Positions 2,554 through 21,651 of a stretch of 30,048 bases of DNA are shown in pieces. Source of the stretch: a virus (lineage: Duplodnaviria > Heunggongvirae > Uroviricota > Caudoviricetes). Below the pieces are notes generated by a model. The model was not told the DNA's origin, did not search any database, and worked only from the letters and a program-made list of their open reading frames with translations. The position numbers and the translations under genes were made by a program. The stretch's first letter is position 1. Every line of letters begins with the position of its first letter. The stretch lies in the IMG/VR virus record IMGVR_UViG_2681813263_000016. The stretch is one strand, 5' to 3'.

Positions 2554-3086
2554 ACGGGCGGTGATGTCTTCTCATTGTCGCCGTCCTTATGAATGTGTTC
2601 GCTGAATGATTTACCCTTGATTCTGACATCTTCAGTAAATTCACAGGGACCGACGAATTTCATTTGTTTACCGATAATATTCAGCAATTCGTCGGCGGTG
2701 AGATTTACCGTTTTCCCTGAAACGTCTACCTGTTCTCCTGTGATTTCAATGACGCCGTTTTCCTTCAGGGTGATGTGTGATTTGCCGTCCCGGTGATACA
2801 CCCTGACATCGCCGGGGGACAGTCCTTTCGGGCGACATCGCTTGTCTTCCACCGCGATGGCAACCAGCCCGTCACGCCGTCCGCCAACGGCCAGCACAAT
2901 GGCTTCAGAACCTTCCGGCGGAACGGACGTAAACCCGTAGTTCTGGAAGCGTTCCACGTCGTCATCGGTGGCATCTGCCAGCGTCTGAATTTGCAGGTTC
3001 TGCCGTGCCAGACCGTCAGACACCAGGCGGACAACAGCGCGGTCAACCATCAGTCGCAGGCGGCGGGCAATTGCGTTTAATCCCAT
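2550..3086 (-). CDS. Q: baseplate assembly protein V-like / spike (Mu gp45/Q-like)
   Basis: 178-aa ORF downstream of the P-like gene; size and position typical of gpV-type spike proteins. Confidence 0.7.
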   Translation of the reverse strand: MGLNAIARRLRLMVDRAVVRLVSDGLARQNLQIQTLADATDDDVERFQNYGFTSVPPEGSEAIVLAVGGRRDGLVAIAVEDKRCRPKGLSPGDVRVYHRDGKSHITLKENGVIEITGEQVDVSGKTVNLTADELLNIIGKQMKFVGPCEFTEDVRIKGKSFSEHIHKDGDNEKTSPPV

Positions 3087-5421: not shown

Positions 5422-7214
5422 TAACCCTGCTCCACGCTGGTGACGCCAGCCTGCGCACTGAGTCTGACGCCGGGTTGATCCACTCTGACGCTTTTCACGC
5501 GGGCATCACCTTCCACCACCACACGGATTTCCCCCTGCAATTGTTGCGGAAGGAAAGGATAATTCTGAGTGGGTTGCATACCAGCCCACGGTCGCGGGTC
5601 GGCAATATTCTTTTTTTCCAGAGAGTTAAACCAGTTCCTGATATCCGTCCATACCGTCGGGCGGTTGTTGTTTTCCTGAACCCGTGCGATTAACGCATCT
5701 GCTTCCTCTTTGTTCTTAGGGAAAGCAGAGAGCACCATGTCAAGGAGATTAAATCCTGATGCAGTTTGTGGTGTAACCAGCGCTGGCGTCTTTGGCCCAC
5801 GTGGGTTGCGGGAGTTACGGGGATTGCGCGATGAATCCGGCGCATCCGGCAGACCGCCGGTATTACCCTTCATCCCGCCACTGCCCATATTGACCACATA
5901 AACCGGCATCACACCGGAGCCGAAAACATCCGTAATGCTGCCGGGTATCCCTTTGCCTTTCCCTTTGGGATTCATGATGTCGTGGATGGTTTTACCGAAC
6001 TGATACGTCTTTCTGATGGCGATAATGCCGCCCAGCGCGATCGCCATATATTTACCGACCTGCAACCAGTTCTGGGCAGTGTTCTGGTCCACGCTGTTGA
6101 GCGCATCCGCCAGGTCCTGAACGGGCTTTGCCAGTTGCCCTTCAGCAAAACGTTGCCATTCGTTATTCAGTGACTGTATTGCGGCATTAAAGCCTTCGGC
6201 ATTGGTCTGTGCGGCCTTTTGCGTGGAACCCAGCTCAATCGTGCCGTAAATCATTTGTTCCATCAGTTGCCGGTTTTCAGGGTTAAGCAGCGCCTTAATC
6301 CCCTGCATTCCGGTCAGATCAAACACATCCTGAAGTTTCAGCGGGTCGTATTTGGCCCGTTTAAGGATTTCCATCATCAGCTCATAGGGCTTTTTGATGT
6401 CTTTTGTGCCTTTGACAAAAACGTCAATGCCGTTTTTTTTCAGGAACTCGATGTTCTTTTTGTCCGACAGGGAAGCATACATGGCCTGAATACTGGTTAC
6501 CGTCTCATCAATGCTGCCTTTGTTTTTGGCGAACACCTGAGCAAATGCCCCCATCTGGGCAATGGCTTCCGGTCCCTGATCCTGAATGATGGAAAACAGT
6601 TTCGGGGCAGCGCGGGCAACATCGGCAACGCTGACAGACCCCACTGCGAACTGTGCATACAACCTGTCCATTGTGTTGCTGACCGCATCAGCGCCCCGGA
6701 CACCTTTTTCCCAGAACTGCGCCATCATCCCGGCTGCAACCTGTCCGTCAACACCGAACGCCTGCATCATCAACCCCATGTTGCGGAGGTTGTCCACCAC
6801 ATACTGATAATCACCGGTTTTCCCCAGAAGTTCGCTGGCCCCCTGACCAAGCGCAGAAGCATCAATACGAATATCTTTCTGGTTCGATACATCCCTGATT
6901 TTGTCGTGAAGCGTCTTTACCTGTTCAGTGGTTAACTGGGCATCCGTACCCATCCGGCGCATCTGCGCATCAAAATCGGCAACCTGTTTGATGGTAAGAC
7001 TACTGCCAAGCCCGGCTATCATTGCCGTGTAGCGGTTACCAAGCGTATCAAGGCCGCGTCCTGCGGCCTCCGTTGTGGCTTTGACCAGGCGCATGGCTTT
7101 CTGGTTATTCCGGGCGAACTGCGACATATTCGCGCCATACTGCCGGGCTTTGGCGGTCAGGTTCCCGGCAAGGTTGATCATGATTTCCGTGCTGAGACGG
7201 CTACCTGTTGCCAT
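5421..7214 (-). CDS. Y: tail tape measure protein (Mu gp42/Y-like)
   Basis: 597-aa ORF, largest tail ORF, Ala/Gly/Gln-rich and predicted helical; sits between the chaperone-like gene and N as in Mu. Confidence 0.8.
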   Translation of the reverse strand: MATGSRLSTEIMINLAGNLTAKARQYGANMSQFARNNQKAMRLVKATTEAAGRGLDTLGNRYTAMIAGLGSSLTIKQVADFDAQMRRMGTDAQLTTEQVKTLHDKIRDVSNQKDIRIDASALGQGASELLGKTGDYQYVVDNLRNMGLMMQAFGVDGQVAAGMMAQFWEKGVRGADAVSNTMDRLYAQFAVGSVSVADVARAAPKLFSIIQDQGPEAIAQMGAFAQVFAKNKGSIDETVTSIQAMYASLSDKKNIEFLKKNGIDVFVKGTKDIKKPYELMMEILKRAKYDPLKLQDVFDLTGMQGIKALLNPENRQLMEQMIYGTIELGSTQKAAQTNAEGFNAAIQSLNNEWQRFAEGQLAKPVQDLADALNSVDQNTAQNWLQVGKYMAIALGGIIAIRKTYQFGKTIHDIMNPKGKGKGIPGSITDVFGSGVMPVYVVNMGSGGMKGNTGGLPDAPDSSRNPRNSRNPRGPKTPALVTPQTASGFNLLDMVLSAFPKNKEEADALIARVQENNNRPTVWTDIRNWFNSLEKKNIADPRPWAGMQPTQNYPFLPQQLQGEIRVVVEGDARVKSVRVDQPGVRLSAQAGVTSVEQG

Positions 7215-8063: not shown

Positions 8064-9565
8064 TTAAAGCTTGAACTGAATCAGGCCTGCCAGCACACGC
8101 AGCTGGTTCACCAGATTCGGGTGGCAGATAAAGTTCAGGCGGTTTTTATCACTGCTGTCACGTGTCACCTGAAGCGTGTCTTTGTAATCGCTGAAGTTCT
8201 CCACAAGGCCCGCCGGGAGAAGTTCGGTCTGGCAGATATCCAGCAGTTCTGCGGTGCACAGCTTCGGCGTCATCACCGGCTGCCCCGCATCCAGCGAGTC
8301 CAGCACGTCATCATCCGCCAGCTTGTGGCGCGGATAACGGTTCGTGAAACGGTTCTTGATGATGTAACGGATACGGCCCAGCGTGGCGAGTGACTGCACA
8401 TCAAGGTACGACACATCCGCATCACCGTACTGGTTAACCCGGTACATGGTGATTTCGCGCTCAATGCAGACGTTATCCCCGGCGTCCACCATGTGCGTGG
8501 CAATGCCGTCATGCAGCAGCAGGTTACGCTCCGGCATATCCCAGCGAACATTACGCGCAGGCGGCAGAATGCCGGTCAGGACCAGCGTCTGAAGCGGACG
8601 CGCCGGGTCAATGGCAAGGTGATACGCTGCCGTTGCGCCGTATGACGCGGCCCACATCCACGCCGGGTGCGGTGACAGGTTGGTGCCGATACAGCTAATC
8701 AGCCAGTCATTGCGGGTTTCACCAAATGTGCCTGTCTCGCCGTGTGAGCCACGAAACGCCGTCCACAGCTGCGCCTCCATCATTTTGAGCGGCCCCCAGC
8801 GGTTCAGCAGTTCATCACGCAGGGTGTTCAGGCTTTTCGTGTCGGTGAACGGGGCGATGATATCGGTAAACCACTCCGGGCCGATGGCCGCAACGGCATC
8901 CGCCATTTCCGGTGTCCCGGTGCCGCCGGTAAACGCGGTTGCGGTCACCTTCACACCTGCCGGGAAGGCTTCACCGGTGTGGTAGTTCAGGCGAACGTCG
9001 GCACCGTTGCCGGTGACGCCGTGCCAGTTCACGGTCAGCTCCACGGTATCCGTGGCATCATCCTTCACCGCAGCGGCCACCTGCGTGGCAGGCTTTTTCG
9101 TCACCGCATCAGCAATGGCTTTTGCAATGTTTTCCTTCGTAGCCCCGGCGCTCACACTCACCTGAACGGACACACCATTAATCAGCAGTGCCACCGTTCC
9201 GGCTTCAGTCGCTGTACCCAGCACGGTCAGCGTGGCTTTTGCGGCAGCGCCTTCAGGCGCGGCAACCGGCATTGCCCAGGTTTCCGTGTACGTGTTGGCA
9301 CGACGCAGCATTTTGAGCATTTCAGCCAGCATCGACCCTTTGCCATAAAGCTGGTCTGCCTGGCTGTCACTGGTGATGCGGGTCAGTGACAGGGCGTCTG
9401 CGCTGCCGGACGANNNNNNNNNNNNNNNNNNNNNNNNNNNNNNGCATGGCCCATGACCAGAATTTTTCGGCTTTGCGCGGATGCACCCTCCAGCGCCTGT
9501 GAATTGTCGATATCGATCCAGACAAGCGGGACGCGGATATCATCAGGAATTGAACCCAGCGACAT
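8064..9565 (-). CDS. L: tail sheath protein (Mu gp39/L-like), interrupted by a 30-N gap at 9414-9443 with a frame change across it
   Basis: Seen: N-terminal part MSLGSIPDDIRVPLVWIDIDNS... starts at 9565 and runs into the N-run; the 422-aa C-terminal ORF (8064-9332) is open with no stop all the way up to the gap (checked by hand, 9333-9413). Total span ~500 codons, right for a sheath. The two halves are in different frames, which the unknown true gap length can explain. Confidence 0.75.
9414..9443. other. run of 30 N (assembly gap or masked bases) inside the sheath gene
   Basis: Seen directly: 30 consecutive n characters; the flanking ORF translation carries 11 X residues. Confidence 0.99.
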
Positions 9566-12613: not shown

Positions 12614-13570
12614 TTACTCCTGTTTCGGTTTAGCGGCGAGGAACTCTTCCCCGGTAATACCCATGCTGCGACACATCGCCAGTTCGGCATCGGTCAGTGT
12701 CTGCGCGGGTTTATCCTTGCCCTGGCTGGGCTTGTCGTTGTTAACCAGCGGCTGTGCACCTTTGGTGTACTCCGCAAACTGTTTGCGGCCTTCTTCCGTG
12801 CGGCAGGTGGCAAGGAACATGTCACGGTTTGCCGGGGCGACTTTTCCGGCCCCGATGGCCGCATCCACAAGCGCCTCGGCTTCCTTCTCTTCCAGTTGCT
12901 GAAGGCGTTTTTCTGCGGTTTCGGCACGGTTCAGTGCCAGATTGTGGGTTTCCACCGGCACAAACTTCGTCAGGTCAGGTGTCTGTGCGCGGTTCAGCGC
13001 CACCTGTTCGTTCTCCTGAAGTTGTTTAATGGCGGCCACGGTATCGTCCACCGTGGCGGATTCAGCCAGCCCAAGCAGGCCGGTGATTTGCACAGGTACT
13101 GTCATCGGGTTTTTCTCCGTATTCAGTGCAGGAAAATCCAGGTTAGGTTTGTTGGTCAGCCCGACGCTGGACAGGCGCGTCACCGCACCGTCTGCGTCAT
13201 GGAAAAACGCCGGGCTGTAATAGCGGTAGCGGCGCTCGCTCAGCATCCACCGGGCGGACTCACTCCAGACAACACGCCCTTCAATGGTGCCGCTGTCCGT
13301 CACCCGCAGTGCTTCCACCCAGCCATACGCCGGAGCCTCTTCACCCCGCGGGCCTTTAATTTCGGTGGCATGTTCAATGTCCACCGGAATGTTGATGTCG
13401 GACGAACGGGCAACCACCTCATGTGGATTGCGGTTCATCCACGTCCGGCCATCGCGCCCGGTGAACTCACCCGCAGGAACGAGTTCAAGCCATTCCGGCA
13501 GTTGAGCGGGTGTCAGCTCAGGGATGGGTTCTGGCAGGGAAAAACACAGCGCCAGCAGTTCCGGTTGCAT
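12614..13570 (-). CDS. I: head maturation protease / scaffold protein, Mu I-like
   Basis: 318-aa ORF with a C-terminal coiled-coil and Lys/Glu-rich tail typical of scaffolds (...EKRLQQLEEKEAEALVDAAIGAGK...); first gene after a 214-nt intergenic region carrying a promoter/terminator-like element. Confidence 0.8.
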   Translation of the reverse strand: MQPELLALCFSLPEPIPELTPAQLPEWLELVPAGEFTGRDGRTWMNRNPHEVVARSSDINIPVDIEHATEIKGPRGEEAPAYGWVEALRVTDSGTIEGRVVWSESARWMLSERRYRYYSPAFFHDADGAVTRLSSVGLTNKPNLDFPALNTEKNPMTVPVQITGLLGLAESATVDDTVAAIKQLQENEQVALNRAQTPDLTKFVPVETHNLALNRAETAEKRLQQLEEKEAEALVDAAIGAGKVAPANRDMFLATCRTEEGRKQFAEYTKGAQPLVNNDKPSQGKDKPAQTLTDAELAMCRSMGITGEEFLAAKPKQE

Positions 13571-13619
13571 GTCAGTCTCCGTCGTCTGGGGTTACCGACG
13601 GTCAGTATGCGGAAGGCAG

Positions 13620-13641
13620 AAAAAAAGCCGGATTTACCGGC
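13620..13641 (-). terminator. intrinsic-terminator-like hairpin with T-tract (minus-strand reading GCCGG-TAAAT-CCGGC-TTTTTTT), ~50 nt upstream of I
   Basis: Seen: 5-bp GC stem, 5-nt loop, 7 T on the transcribed strand. The same 26-nt sequence recurs at 21172-21197. Confidence 0.5.
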
Positions 13642-13645
13642 TTCA

Positions 13646-13710
13646 CTGAAAACGGGGAAATACCCCCTTCAAAACCCCTTCAAAAACGCCACAGACGCTT
13701 CAAAAAAGCC
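13646..13710 (-). promoter_or_regulatory. repeat-rich putative late promoter region upstream of I (TGAAG motif x4, GGGG-N5-CCCC dyad)
   Basis: Seen on the minus strand: TTTTTTGAAGC, TTTTTGAAGGGG, TTTTGAAGGGG, then TGAAGCCGG of the hairpin element, all within ~70 nt. Inference: binding sites for a late activator. Confidence 0.3.
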
Positions 13711-13784
13711 AGGGTGTACATTCATGCCATCAGAATAAAAAACGCGTTTCTGATGCGTTTCAGGGGTATTTACGGCGGGGTGGG

Positions 13785-16113: not shown

Positions 16114-17645
16114 AGTAAACCTCCCTCATTTTTCAGGCCGCGTGTCAGCTTCATCTGGCGGCGCGCGTTGCCTTCTTCCGGTTTCGCCGGGCGGTTCAGG
16201 CGGTGCAGCTCGTAACGGTGGCAGTCATCTTTACTGGCAAGGAAGCCCAGGAAAATAGCCACAGCGGCGTCGCCGTGACGCTTGCGGCCATCACTGCCTT
16301 TAGTACGGGCATCGTCAATACCGGGAACGCCACGCAGTAACTGAATGGCCCCGAGGTCATTGATCACATCTTCATGCTTCGGAAGGATCAGCTCATCATC
16401 TTCAAACGCCGCACGGAAACGGGGCATGTTTTCGCGGTAGAACGCCACGGACAGCATCACCTGTTCCACCTCGTCGCCGTATCGTTCTGCCGCCTGTTCT
16501 GCCAGATACTGACCATTACCCCGCGCATCCATTTTGATACCGTCACGACGGGGCAGACGATCGCAAAGCCAGAACAGCACCTGCTCCTGCTGTTTAAACG
16601 GCACATTGGCAAGCTCAACCAGAAACGGCACCTCGCGGGTGGTGTCGTCGTTCACCGTCACCGGGGCCAGCACGGTCAGGTCACCCGAACGCGCAAAGTC
16701 TTCCCCCAGACAGTGGCGCAGATTCTTCGGGAGTTTTTCCAGCTCAGGGCGCACCACCGTTTCCAGCCATTCCCTGATCTCTGCCCGGCGCTGGCCTTCC
16801 GTCAGTGCGTTAAATTCCGGTGTGCCGGTAAAGCGCAACACTTTTCCGGTGCCACGGGCCGCACGTTCACGCAGTGAGCGGGGGATATACGTGCCGCCGC
16901 CGTTTTTCGGGACGCAGTAATACTCCTCCAGCGCATCTTCGCGGGTGGCGGTATTTCGCAGCAGGCCTTCTTTCCATTCCACCTCGGCTTCCGGTGACCA
17001 CACCATGCCGCGCACCTGACAGATACGCCGGTACAGCCCGTCATTACAGGCGTCATCCAGCGTGATGGTGTGAATACGGTAATCTTTTTTGCCCGCGCGG
17101 CTTTCCTGAATCAGCTGGTTAAACGGGTTGTCCACGCCGTCATGGGTGGAGATAAGGCGAACCTTACCGCCCCACGTGGTCAGTGGTGTGACCGCCTTGA
17201 GTACCTCATCCAGCTTTTCATGAAACGCCGCTTCGTCGATGGTGACATTCCCCTGCATCCCGCGAATGTTGCCCGGATTACTGGACAGCGCCTTGACCTT
17301 AAATCCGCTGGCGAAGTACACGACGAACGTCAGAATGTCCTTGTCTTCGTCGGTGATCACTTCCTCGCGGATTTCTTCCGCGGCTGCATTAAACGCTTTT
17401 GCCCACATCGCCACGGCGTCGATAAATTCGCGGGCCATCTCCTTGTTCGAACCGATGTAAAAGTGATCGCGCCCGCCGTTTTCCTTCTTCAGTGATGCGG
17501 TCAGTGCCGCATCTGCCGCTTCCGCCCAGGTTAAACCGGTACGGCGGGATTTTTCGGCGATTTTCAGTTTTGAATCATCCGCCACCCAGCGTTTCTGATA
17601 CGGCAGCAGAACATCGGATTCACTGAATGCGTTCATCTGTGTCAT
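16110..17645 (-). CDS. terminase large subunit (Mu gp28-like)
   Basis: 511-aa ORF between the small terminase-like gene and portal; ATGA overlap with the upstream gene; size and position typical of TerL. Confidence 0.85.
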   Translation of the reverse strand: MTQMNAFSESDVLLPYQKRWVADDSKLKIAEKSRRTGLTWAEAADAALTASLKKENGGRDHFYIGSNKEMAREFIDAVAMWAKAFNAAAEEIREEVITDEDKDILTFVVYFASGFKVKALSSNPGNIRGMQGNVTIDEAAFHEKLDEVLKAVTPLTTWGGKVRLISTHDGVDNPFNQLIQESRAGKKDYRIHTITLDDACNDGLYRRICQVRGMVWSPEAEVEWKEGLLRNTATREDALEEYYCVPKNGGGTYIPRSLRERAARGTGKVLRFTGTPEFNALTEGQRRAEIREWLETVVRPELEKLPKNLRHCLGEDFARSGDLTVLAPVTVNDDTTREVPFLVELANVPFKQQEQVLFWLCDRLPRRDGIKMDARGNGQYLAEQAAERYGDEVEQVMLSVAFYRENMPRFRAAFEDDELILPKHEDVINDLGAIQLLRGVPGIDDARTKGSDGRKRHGDAAVAIFLGFLASKDDCHRYELHRLNRPAKPEEGNARRQMKLTRGLKNEGGLL

Positions 17646-18223
17646 ACACTAATCCCCAGAATTTCACGTTTGATGGTGTCAGCCGCACCGCCTGACAGAC
17701 CGCCCGCTCTGACCAGCTCTTCGGTTTTCTCTGCCATTTCCTGCGCAAACGCATCGCGGATTGCTTTTTCGCGTTTATGGCTGGTCATGGCTGCCGCTTC
17801 CAGACGCTGGGCAACCAGCGCCAGTTGCCCCAGCGCCTTCGGTGCAACAGGTTTGTCGTCTTCTGTCATCGACATGGACGTTTCAAAGGCCAGCGTTTTT
17901 ACAAACTCCATCAGCAGCCTGCCGACGTCTGACGTCGGCGCGGAACCCAGCTTTGCCGCCCAGACTTCGGCCATTTCGCGGGAGGCACGGATTTTTGCCC
18001 CGACTTTTTCCATGCGGCTGGCATAGCGGTTTAAGCCCGTCCGGCTTAACTGCATCTCCCCCGGCAGGTTGTGTTCGTCAATCAGGGCATTGATGGCTTC
18101 GCGGATTTCTTCCTGCGTGTGCCGCTTTTCCCGCAGCATCTGGTGTAACTGCTCACGGATGCTGTCCGGGAGTAAATCCACTTTGGAAAGACGGCCACGG
18201 GTGGGGCGTTGTTCATTTTCCAT
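17642..18223 (-). CDS. terminase small subunit-like protein (Mu gp27 position)
   Basis: 193-aa helical, charged ORF immediately upstream of TerL with overlapping junction. Confidence 0.6.
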   Translation of the reverse strand: MENEQRPTRGRLSKVDLLPDSIREQLHQMLREKRHTQEEIREAINALIDEHNLPGEMQLSRTGLNRYASRMEKVGAKIRASREMAEVWAAKLGSAPTSDVGRLLMEFVKTLAFETSMSMTEDDKPVAPKALGQLALVAQRLEAAAMTSHKREKAIRDAFAQEMAEKTEELVRAGGLSGGAADTIKREILGISV

Positions 18224-20528: not shown

Positions 20529-21116
20529 TCATCCCCGCGTGACGGACGACACGTTGTCGATAATTTCCAGACAGGCGTCGGTCACTTTCTCCATGCGGTT
20601 AAACCAGCCGTTCAGGTATTTGCCCTGGGCAGGTTTGGATTTGATGATGTCGGCATAAAAGCGGGAACGACGGACAATGCAGCGGGTCAGCAACCAGTCC
20701 GGGGTGGACAGGCTCACTGCCTTACGGGTACGCGGACCGATGATGCCGTCAGCATCCACATCAGCGGCTTCCTGCAAAATCCTGATAGCTTTTTTAACGC
20801 CATGCTGAACCGCCGCATCGAACACAAACATCGCCACGCCATCAGGCCACTGGTCACATCCGGCAGGCAGCCAGTAATCGCGCCAGTAAATCTGCGCGAC
20901 CTGTTCGCGGGTTAAATCCCTGATGCGGGTATCCGGTTTACCGTCGCCGCTGACATCGGTTTTGCCGTCAATCACACCGTCGCGGCGGTCAGAAATGCCG
21001 TATCTGGTTTCGCCGCCACGGTCAGTGGGGTCATTGACATAGACGCCTTCGATATCGGGACGCAGAATAAAATTCAGCGCATACTCAAAGGCCGGGGAGA
21101 ATTTTTGATTTTCCAT
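20529..21116 (-). CDS. endolysin, GH108-type N-terminal domain with C-terminal peptidoglycan-binding domain
   Basis: 195-aa ORF; N-terminal ...DIEGVYVNDPTDRGGETRYGIS... resembles the GH108 catalytic motif and ...DADGIIGPRTRKAV... the PG_binding_3 motif (by eye). No N-terminal hydrophobic signal-anchor. First gene after the mor-proximal terminator. Confidence 0.75.
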   Translation of the reverse strand: MENQKFSPAFEYALNFILRPDIEGVYVNDPTDRGGETRYGISDRRDGVIDGKTDVSGDGKPDTRIRDLTREQVAQIYWRDYWLPAGCDQWPDGVAMFVFDAAVQHGVKKAIRILQEAADVDADGIIGPRTRKAVSLSTPDWLLTRCIVRRSRFYADIIKSKPAQGKYLNGWFNRMEKVTDACLEIIDNVSSVTRG

Positions 21117-21171
21117 AAAAGCACCTGTGAAGCAGATTTAAACGTGGTCTGCTTCATGGTGCCGGAGGTAT

Positions 21172-21193
21172 AAAAAAAGCCGGATTTACCGGC
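21172..21193 (-). terminator. intrinsic-terminator-like hairpin with T-tract (GCCGG-TAAAT-CCGGC-TTTTTTT) 8 nt downstream of mor
   Basis: Seen: same stem-loop and 7-T tract as at 13620-13641 (26 nt identical); lies between the Mor-family gene stop (21202) and the endolysin start (21116). Confidence 0.55.
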
Positions 21194-21201
21194 TTCATTG
21201 A

Positions 21202-21651
21202 TTAAGGACGTCGTGGCGGACGACGAACGGGGTGAGGCAGGTTCGGGGAGTGGTAAAACAAATCCGGCTGGTATTTATTACACTCCAGACGCCGCATCCG
21301 CTTGATGGCCTTGTAGACGGTTTTATACGTCACCCCGTAACGCTGAACCAGTTCAGGAATATTATGGCCGTTAAAATCACGCCAGATACGCATATCCCGG
21401 ACAAGATTCTCCAGAATATTCCCCCTCGGAACATAAACCTGCATCCCGCCGATATAGCGACAAATCGCCACAACCAGCTCAAGGGAATGGGCAGGGTCTG
21501 CGCCAATCCGGGCCAGCTCTTTACGCAGCAGTGCGTTCAGTTCAGAAAGTAACGCCGGATAAGCCGTGTTTTCCTGGTAATCGTTAAGGTATTCCAGAAC
21601 GCTGTCGTCCCGGAAGTCTTCGAATAAATCCTGCTCTTTCATCTGTTTCAT
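21202..21651 (-). CDS. mor: Mor/C-family transcriptional activator (middle/late operon regulator)
   Basis: 149-aa ORF; C-terminal ...YVPRGNILENLVRDMRIWRDFNGHNIPELVQRYGVTYKTVYKAIKRMRRL... matches the Mor/C family HTH region as I recall it; sits directly after gemA as in Mu. Confidence 0.8.
   Translation of the reverse strand: MKQMKEQDLFEDFRDDSVLEYLNDYQENTAYPALLSELNALLRKELARIGADPAHSLELVVAICRYIGGMQVYVPRGNILENLVRDMRIWRDFNGHNIPELVQRYGVTYKTVYKAIKRMRRLECNKYQPDLFYHSPNLPHPVRRPPRRP

Follow-up and report, generated by a model that had tools for sequence, protein, structure and literature searches.

The spacer between genes F and I of a Mu-like prophage of Escherichia coli appears to combine a gyrase site, a Mor-dependent promoter and an intrinsic terminator, all three with homologues among the characterised elements of phage Mu, a reading to which we assign a probability of about 0.72. 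On the basis of homology, spacing, conservation, folding and position, we infer that these elements would be cleaved by gyrase, would bind Mor and start transcription of the I operon, and would terminate transcripts arriving from upstream. The spacer would be a compact version of the known control region between G and I of Mu, with one twist, namely that its I promoter would belong to the Mor/Pm class.

Prophage and gene context

The window analysed here, a stretch of 30,048 nucleotides (IMG/VR record IMGVR_UViG_2681813263_000016), is a Mu-like transposable prophage of E. coli, and a match at 95–99% identity is carried by 49 of 5,426 complete E. coli genomes. The late genes of the prophage are on the minus strand, and Pfam and RefSeq annotation gave the gene order mor, lys, gp27, large terminase, portal, F, I, T. 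The genes needed here and the spacer are as follows.

21202..21651, minus strand: mor, the sole Mor/C-family activator gene of the prophage (Pfam Mor, E = 4.3e-30)
21116..20529, minus strand: lys (Pfam/RefSeq annotation)
13784..13571, minus strand: F–I spacer, 214 nt
12614..13570, minus strand: gene I, head protease/scaffold (Pfam Mu-like_Pro, E = 6e-45), which heads the predicted PI operon

The TAA stop codon of F occupies 13787-13785 and I starts at 13570. An earlier note made from this sequence had argued that the 214 nt in between leave no room for a gene, and this was borne out, as no conserved ORF was found within the spacer and an Rfam search of it returned no family. An 18-codon ORF was rejected since it has no ribosome-binding site and its ATG is GTG in a close variant, and a sub-threshold Rfam match to sroD (19 bits against a cut-off of 50) was taken as general terminator likeness. 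The statement in the same note that Mu has gene G at this position is correct, the Mu record placing G (17389-17859) between F and I; in the window lineage the G homologue is found downstream of T. A blastn search of the spacer against phage records gave nothing useful, and the homology to Mu was seen only on direct reading of the Mu spacer.

A probable Mor-type promoter upstream of I

A 26-bp hairpin element, GTGAAGCCGGTAAATCCGGCTTTTTT, is located at 13646..13621 on the minus strand, one base away from the 13645-13620 previously assigned to it. It ends 50 nt short of the start codon of I, in agreement with the distance given in the earlier note. The second copy that had been described is also present, at 21198..21173 (minus strand), where it begins 3 nt past the mor stop codon and is 25/26 identical; over a longer stretch of 30 nt the two window copies are identical at 29 positions. 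None of 100 shuffles of the window yielded any match to the element. The near-identity of the two copies could be due to recent gene conversion instead of selection. [quoted passage not shown] The promoter features predicted from these comparisons are listed below.

13632..13647, minus strand: predicted Mor-binding box AGTGA-AGCCGG-TAAAT, corresponding to -51..-36 of Mu Pm
13604..13609, minus strand: -10 hexamer CATACT of the predicted late promoter PI, 22 nt past the Mor box
13594..13598, minus strand: predicted PI transcription start, ~13596, placed by analogy with Mu Pm, where +1 is 8 nt past the hexamer
21172..21199, minus strand: first copy of the element, after mor, with Mor box AATGA-AGCCGG-TAAAT (21199-21184), terminator hairpin and T-run
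21156..21161, minus strand: -10 hexamer CACCAT of the predicted promoter Plys, 22 nt past the Mor box; CACTAT in a variant

In the Mu record, Pm, the middle promoter activated by Mor, is placed at 9163-9233 and contains a predicted terminator. The Mor dyad of Pm, at -51..-36, consists of two 5-bp inverted repeats flanking a G/C-rich hexamer, the Mor footprint covers -56..-36, and the KMnO4-reactive bases are -12, -4, -1, +1, +3 and +4 (PMC4390567, PMC4287176). Only with +1 at Mu 9224 can the six reactive bases all be accommodated by the Mu sequence, and the Mu box is therefore AGTAA-AGCCGG-TTAAT, 22 nt from the hexamer TATCCT. The window box is identical to it at 13/16 positions and has the same 5 + 6 + 5 layout, with a dyad symmetry that is poorer than in Mu (3/5 vs 4/5 arm positions). 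Mu Pm can be written as ACAGTAAAGCCGGTTAATCCGGCTTTTTTT, 15 nt and TATCCT, and the window promoter as TCAGTGAAGCCGGTAAATCCGGCTTTTTTT, 15 nt and CATACT; the longer comparison is between ACAGTAAAGCCGGTTAATCCGGCTTTTTTTACGTCCTCAATATCCT in Mu and TCAGTGAAGCCGGTAAATCCGGCTTTTTTTCTGCCTTCCGCATACT in the window. Nearly the same 30-nt sequence is thus shared with Pm, including the identical arms GCCGG/CCGGC and the T7 run, and the differences include the loop (TAAAT in the window vs TTAAT in Mu) and the left arm of the box (AGTGA or AATGA vs AGTAA).

Like Pm, the window promoter would pair a 16-bp box with a weak -10 hexamer 22 nt away and has neither an extended -10 nor a -35 hexamer: TCCGGC, 17 nt upstream of CATACT, matches TTGACA at one position only. 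A σ70 consensus scan of the spacer found no promoter, and such a scan would be expected to miss activator-dependent promoters that have no -35. The Mor protein of the window is 61% identical to Mu Mor over its full length and 32% identical to Mu C, and it is the single match to the Mor/C family in the whole prophage, in which no C gene was found. Since the element nearly matches Pm and the sole activator is 61% identical to Mu Mor, the predicted I promoter most likely depends on Mor and is a Pm-type, as opposed to a C-type, promoter; Plys is most likely Mor-dependent as well.

The earlier note had proposed an activator-dependent promoter before I, as in Mu. The position holds, the Mu late promoter (17977-18043) also lying just before I, and so does the Mor-family geometry, but the homologue is Mu Pm and not Mu PI. 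The predicted promoter shares with the C-dependent PI its position and its job, which is to start the I/T head operon under the control of an activator; the -10 regions are homologous (CAAACT in Mu, CATACT in the window), and an inverted repeat follows the -10 in the leader of both. In contrast to PI, however, the window box is of the Mor/Pm type and matches Pm instead of PI, and no C protein is encoded, which places the predicted promoter in the Mor/Pm class and outside the C-dependent class. The arrangement also differs from that of Pm itself. In both phages a copy of the element directly follows mor, but Pm is single in Mu, where it drives a middle operon ending in C, whereas the window has a predicted Pm-type promoter twice, heading the lysis/head operon and the I operon, and lacks both C and the middle operon.

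A weight matrix built from nine Mor boxes, those of the window and of its relatives, found exactly two strong sites in the prophage (scores of 31, the next best being 17), before lys and before I, both directly upstream of operon-initial genes. Each phage of the window lineage has two strong sites, at lys and I, compared with one in Mu, at Pm. For a third Mor promoter that might serve the tail genes, only weak matches with scores of at most 17 were found. One weak match, at 2720..2701, has an ATATTA at the correct spacing.

Conservation among relatives points to the DNA box itself. In ECONIH4 the I-proximal box is conserved at 15/16 positions, compared with 36–60% identity in its flanks, and the hexamers aligned to CATACT in relatives (CACACT, GACACT, CATGCT and CAAACT) all keep A2 and T6. 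In ECONIH4, Klebsiella phage Kp4866-3 and Trabulsiella the I-proximal copy has neither the 3' hairpin arm nor the T-run and folds no better than shuffled sequence, yet all three retain the 16-bp box and an xAxxCT hexamer 22–23 nt later. Retention of the box and of the -10 spacing in relatives that have no hairpin argues for selection on a DNA site and not just on an RNA structure.

A predicted terminator within the same element

The promoter-element part of the earlier reading of the hairpin is supported by these comparisons; an overlapping role as an intrinsic terminator, for which the following feature was identified, had not been considered.

13620..13644, minus strand: intrinsic-terminator hairpin GAAGCCGG-TAAAT-CCGGCTTT with T-run, overlapping the Mor box and the would-be -35 region

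On the transcribed strand the hairpin has an 8-bp stem with 5 GC pairs and a 5-nt loop, followed by U7. The I-proximal hairpin has a folding energy of -12.8 kcal/mol (z = -3.4) and the post-mor hairpin one of -12.6 kcal/mol (z = -4.3), and none of 200 shuffles folded equally well. By its anatomy, the RNA form of the 26-bp element is a canonical (Rho-independent) intrinsic terminator, and it would be expected to end transcription.

Wherever the element comes after mor or the early operon (in Mu, TUM9757, ECONIH4, Kp4866-3 and the E. coli variants), each copy retains the hairpin and a run of T7–8. The hairpin before I is retained by the window lineage, by one viral contig and by Shewanella-type phages, where the T-run is also present and the stem changes are compensatory; other relatives have lost it. 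Since ECONIH4, Kp4866-3 and Trabulsiella have lost the I-proximal hairpin and T-run, termination before I seems to be dispensable in relatives. From this distribution, termination looks obligatory after mor and optional before I.

It could be supposed that the element is an intrinsic terminator only, present twice by chance, with I expressed by read-through or from some other promoter and the likeness to Pm being inherited baggage. The canonical anatomy and stability of the hairpin, the location of the post-mor copy where an early-operon terminator is expected, and the failure of a simple σ70 scan to find a promoter in the spacer would all be consistent with this. The relatives without the 3' arm and T-run, however, keep the box nearly unchanged with the -10 at 22–23 nt, the homology of the two copies continues past the hairpin to the -10, and with a terminator but no promoter, I, T and ~13 kb of tail genes would remain silent, so that we consider the terminator-only explanation very improbable.

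[quoted passage not shown]

Upstream of the Mor box the spacer carries three direct repeats, which align with the central strong gyrase site (SGS) of Mu.

13653..13718, minus strand: predicted right arm of a central SGS, ~+1 to +66 from a putative cleavage site at ~13719/13718
13663..13707, minus strand: array of three direct repeats, TTTTTTGAAG (13707-13698), TTTTTGAAGGGG (13686-13675) and TTTTGAAGGGGG (13674-13663)

In the Mu record the gyrase cut is at 17879/80, in the G–I spacer. The predicted right arm aligns colinearly with Mu 17880-17945 (GATTTTTTAAAACGCGCCACGGGATTTTTAAACCGGTATTTAACGGTG in Mu, GGCTTTTTTGAAGCGTCTGTGGCGTTTTTGAAGGGGTTTTGAAGGGGG in the window), and the 133-bp 'Mu SGS' fragment of PMC6379681 corresponds to Mu 17812–17944. 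Within that fragment three repeats stand at +14, +35 and +48, and the window repeats are at +15, +35 and +46 of the aligned position, spaced by 20 and 11 nt. The Mu gyrase site cannot do without its right arm, which bears bending repeat motifs, and the arms of the E. coli gyrase motif show a 10.75-bp G/C phasing (PMC10052514, PMC3820752, PMC6379681, PMC13284261). For positions 13646-13712, AT/GC periodicity at 10.75–11 bp is at the 99.97–99.99th percentile of the window, compared with the 99.6–99.9th percentile for the authentic arm within Mu. The likeness to the Mu site thus extends to its location (the spacer immediately before I, ~48–49% of the way along the genome), to three T-tract repeats with offsets near +15, +35 and +47, to 10.75–11-bp phasing and to a colinear alignment. 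On the other side, the repeat core is GAAG with a G-run in the window and AAAC in Mu, the cleavage-site and left-arm sequences of Mu can barely be aligned with the window, the gene upstream is F instead of G, and the window arm abuts the predicted promoter. The cleavage-site region is poorly conserved.

In NZ_CP065615, where the ends of a ~34.7-kb prophage could be placed to within ~50 bp, the array is ~48.3% from the left (repressor) end, compared with 48.7% for the Mu cut. Fifteen Mu-like viral contigs of 30–42 kb have the array at a median of 48.6% from the nearest end. This central position follows partly from the conserved gene order and is therefore not independent evidence. When viral contigs were scanned for the pattern, 33 loci that have Mu-like head genes were recovered, and the array lies between F or G and I at all of the ~17 loci where both flanking genes are present. 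A regular expression derived from the arrays matched once per examined locus, at the spacer position; Mu's own array fails the strict expression and was placed by alignment. In ECONIH4, Kp4866-3, Trabulsiella, Shewanella MuM16-2 and TUM9757 the array likewise comes after F or G and before I.

A whole-motif scan with the 133-bp gyrase consensus, using exact and strong/weak matches, did not place the true Mu site among its top matches, and the whole-motif score was discarded for that reason. The match to the arm consensus, at 23/47 in the window (99.97th percentile) and 19/47 in Mu, is at most suggestive. In its GAAG form, TTTTGAAGGGGG, the repeat resembles the published E. coli gyrase consensus arm, CTTTAAGGGGG, more closely than the Mu form does. 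Oram and Pato (2004, J Bacteriol 186:4575) studied candidate central gyrase sites in Mu-like prophages, and their work shares with the present proposal the concept of a central gyrase site in the spacer before I; according to later literature, only the site of the E. coli O157 Sakai prophage could replace that of Mu. The Sakai prophage was not among the matches listed for our G–I spacer query. [quoted passage not shown]

Independence of the array from the promoter

The earlier note had taken the hairpin and four TGAAG repeats together as one activator-dependent promoter, with a Mor-family protein acting on the TGAAG motifs. The pentamers start at 13702, 13682, 13671 and 13645 (minus strand), four in 58 nt, within TTTTTTGAAGC, TTTTTGAAGGGG, TTTTGAAGGGGG and CAGTGAAGCC respectively. 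They are indeed clustered beyond chance, as had been claimed (Poisson P ~8e-5, taking 85 nt and the pentamer frequency of this strand; 0/300 window shuffles reached a cluster of four), and they lie beside a -10-like hexamer; the fourth is inside the element common to the mor–lys spacer, the repeats fall on one helical face with their spacings of 20 and 11 nt, and a recent preprint describes Mor/C binding as tetramers over about three helical turns. The grouping nevertheless divides in two. The three upstream pentamers belong to the repeat array, and the fourth is part of the Mor box, which stays TGAAGC in relatives whose repeats read TTTAAAC or TTTGAAC. No TGAAG repeats precede the mor–lys copy, mor coding sequence being there instead, and the -56 edge of the Mor footprint maps to window position 13652, downstream of the three repeats. 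The array also precedes C-type I promoters in Mu and TUM9757, which argues against the repeats being part of an activator site; its gap to the Mor box ranges from ~20 to ~170 nt in relatives, and in Grimontia genes on the reverse strand, 5 kb in all, stand between it and the I promoter. Neither promoter type nor promoter distance thus governs the array, and a single promoter reading all four pentamers appears highly improbable.

A different question is whether the triple repeat might be something other than a gyrase site, such as an array bound by a phage or host nucleoid protein, or curved DNA serving as an upstream promoter element or insulator. The three units have changed jointly between phages, being all GAAG, all GAAC or all AAAC, as is typical of protein-binding iterons and is not obviously required by a purely shape-based readout; phased T-tracts are classic curved DNA upstream of promoters; and the consensus-based gyrase score failed on the true Mu site. 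Weighing against this, the homologous Mu sequence lies within an experimentally defined gyrase site, in its essential right arm, the GAAG form is nearer than the Mu form to the published consensus arm, and the distance to the promoter is not conserved. Array types are, moreover, swapped among phages with divergent proteins and differ among those with nearly identical ones, against expectation for a co-evolving phage protein: TUM9757 has a Mu-type prophage, whose F and I are 95% and 98% identical to those of Mu, but its array is of the window-type GAAG form, identical to that of the window at 42/45 positions. Since array type does not track the phage proteins, this pattern favours reading by a host factor such as gyrase over a phage-specific protein, and a non-gyrase function of the array seems unlikely.

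Other inverted repeats in the spacer

Three further features lie within the spacer.

13728..13755, minus strand: inverted repeat CATCAGAA-N12-TTCTGATG, in the left part of the spacer
13654..13666, minus strand: GGGG-TATTT-CCCC dyad followed by GTTTTC, a weak hairpin (-9.4 kcal/mol)
13579..13601, minus strand: leader inverted repeat CCGTCG-N11-CGACGG, whose 3' arm overlaps the Shine-Dalgarno GGAG (13580..13577)

The latter two, like CATACT, were found where the earlier note had reported them. [quoted passage not shown] The GGGG-N5-CCCC dyad, though present here, is interrupted in the close E. coli variant RIVM_C019217, which has an insertion and a substitution in it; because it is broken there, it is probably incidental and non-essential. 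The leader inverted repeat (-9.7 kcal/mol) by itself folds no better than shuffles. An inverted repeat follows the -10 in 8/8 relatives examined, Mu included, with differing stem sequences. Since the predicted +1 is at the end of its 5' arm, one speculative idea is that the full leader hairpin, covering the Shine-Dalgarno sequence, would form only in read-through RNA. Elsewhere in the window, CCGGTTAATCCGG at 185-197 was dismissed as a chance match, as it is within a tail-fibre gene and has no promoter context.

Proposed function of the spacer

In the proposed scheme, the region ~13784..13653 would be the counterpart of the central SGS of Mu, with the phased T-tract/G-tract repeats TTTTGAAGGGG as its right arm, which by analogy with Mu would wrap around the C-terminal domain of GyrA. 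Processive supercoiling by gyrase, starting at the prophage centre, would help to pair the two prophage ends for replicative transposition. The Mor orthologue would bind the box at 13647..13632, in place of a -35 and 22 nt upstream of the weak -10 CATACT, and would recruit σ70 RNA polymerase, so that I-operon transcripts would start near 13596; the near-identical promoter after mor would drive lys. Because the phage has no C protein, Mor would turn on the late genes directly, in a two-step cascade as opposed to the three steps of Mu. As RNA, the 8-bp GC-rich hairpin with U7 would halt transcripts coming from upstream, the early ones after mor and the lys–F ones before I, and termination of these incoming transcripts would leave the downstream genes dependent on Mor.

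The predicted end of the gyrase arm, 13653, abuts the predicted edge of the Mor footprint at 13652, and the zone contacted by Mor and the RNA polymerase α-subunit would be ~13657-13632. The repeats could be more than a passive wrapping signal, although we think this quite unlikely: they might be iterons of some protein, which would account for the joint change of all three units, or, given the abutting contact zone, the I promoter might be unable to fire in response to Mor while gyrase is bound, and vice versa. If mutual exclusion holds, the end of the replication phase would be coupled to the onset of head-gene expression.

All three elements of the spacer are already known from Mu, and to a specialist this would be a neatly packed but ordinary and unsurprising control region that leaves current understanding in place. 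What the analysis provides is an annotation for a gene-free spacer that occurs in E. coli and also in numerous Mu-like phages from Klebsiella, Shewanella and Vibrionaceae. Even Mu-like phages with head proteins no more than ~27% identical share the triple-repeat arm, and the array appears to move between lineages as a module; if it is a gyrase site, then a central gyrase site would not be peculiar to Mu, and the natural variants GAAG, GAAC and AAAC would be useful for learning what makes such a site 'strong'. If the promoter assignment is also correct, one 26-bp element would serve both as a DNA activator site and as an RNA terminator, insulating an operon and making it activator-dependent, and in Mu-like phages without C the cascade would have two steps, with the late operons driven from Pm-type promoters by a Mor orthologue.

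Inverted repeats in the F–I spacer and in the leaders of I and lys

Three inverted repeats were located in the F–I spacer, the 214-nt gene-free gap upstream of the head-protease gene I, and in the leaders of I and lys:

13579-13601, minus strand: leader inverted repeat of I, also present in the related loci L006, L012, L004, L113, L008 and L013
13728-13755, minus strand: inverted repeat CATCAGAA-N12-TTCTGATG in the left part of the F–I spacer
21127-21155, minus strand: 9-bp inverted repeat of the lys leader, TGAAGCAGA-N11-TCTGCTTCA

At the I promoter, an inverted repeat starting directly after the -10 hexamer was found in all eight of the relatives examined, including phage Mu, and its stems vary among them (CCGTCG/CGACGG, TGTCCGG/CCGGACA, CTGTCCGTC/GACGGACAG and CTGCTCA/TGAGCAG). 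In the window, the full leader hairpin covers the Shine-Dalgarno sequence of I. The predicted transcription start (+1) of the I promoter coincides with the end of the 5' arm of this repeat, so that the full hairpin could form only in read-through transcripts. The repeat in the predicted leader of lys is located between the -10 hexamer of the predicted lys promoter, Plys, and the lys start codon; both of its arms are kept in two E. coli variants, one of which has a single change within the N11 between the arms. Three E. coli copies all carry the repeat of the left part of the F–I spacer without any change.

Across the window, AT/GC periodicity at 10.75 bp peaks at 7104-7168, within the tape-measure gene, where it is slightly higher than the value for the F–I spacer; no regulatory context was evident at this peak. 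A run of 30 consecutive N, representing masked or unknown bases, occupies 9414-9443 in the tail-gene region.

Weak matches to the Mor box and the com/mom region

One further match to the Mor box, the predicted 16-bp Mor-binding site, was recorded within the baseplate V gene:

2701-2720, minus strand: weak Mor-like box TCAGGGAAAACGGTAAATCT, with a matrix score of 17 versus 31 for the two strong sites

The hexamer ATATTA follows this box after 22 nt, and the box could be a weak internal promoter of the tail operon or else a chance match. Mu also has a second, weaker match, AAAGCCGGTAAATCC (score 20), within a baseplate gene at Mu 30674 (L009 11174). Genes similar to com and mom are found at the right end of the prophage, past window coordinate 1 (7083-7208 of locus L011, from the same prophage), and this prophage is without C. 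No strong Mor box was found upstream of com in L011.

Variation of the spacer among relatives

The spot upstream of I appears to be a cargo-insertion site, being occupied by a foreign insert in Grimontia and Enterovibrio prophages (L003 3722-8807; also L001 and L002). In the Grimontia locus L003 the insert is approximately 5 kb in length, carries reverse-strand genes of 801, 391 and 492 aa, and separates the triple-repeat array of the spacer from the I promoter. The prophage of E. coli TUM9757 is of the Mu type, with 95%, 98% and 75% identity to F, I and C of Mu, respectively. Whereas the array of Mu itself is of the AAAC type, this prophage (L013 8968-9168; also PEC422 and SE11) has a GAAG repeat array like that of the window, identical at 42 of 45 positions. 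The presence of a window-type GAAG array in a Mu-type prophage indicates that the spacer is mosaic, and that the array appears to move between lineages.
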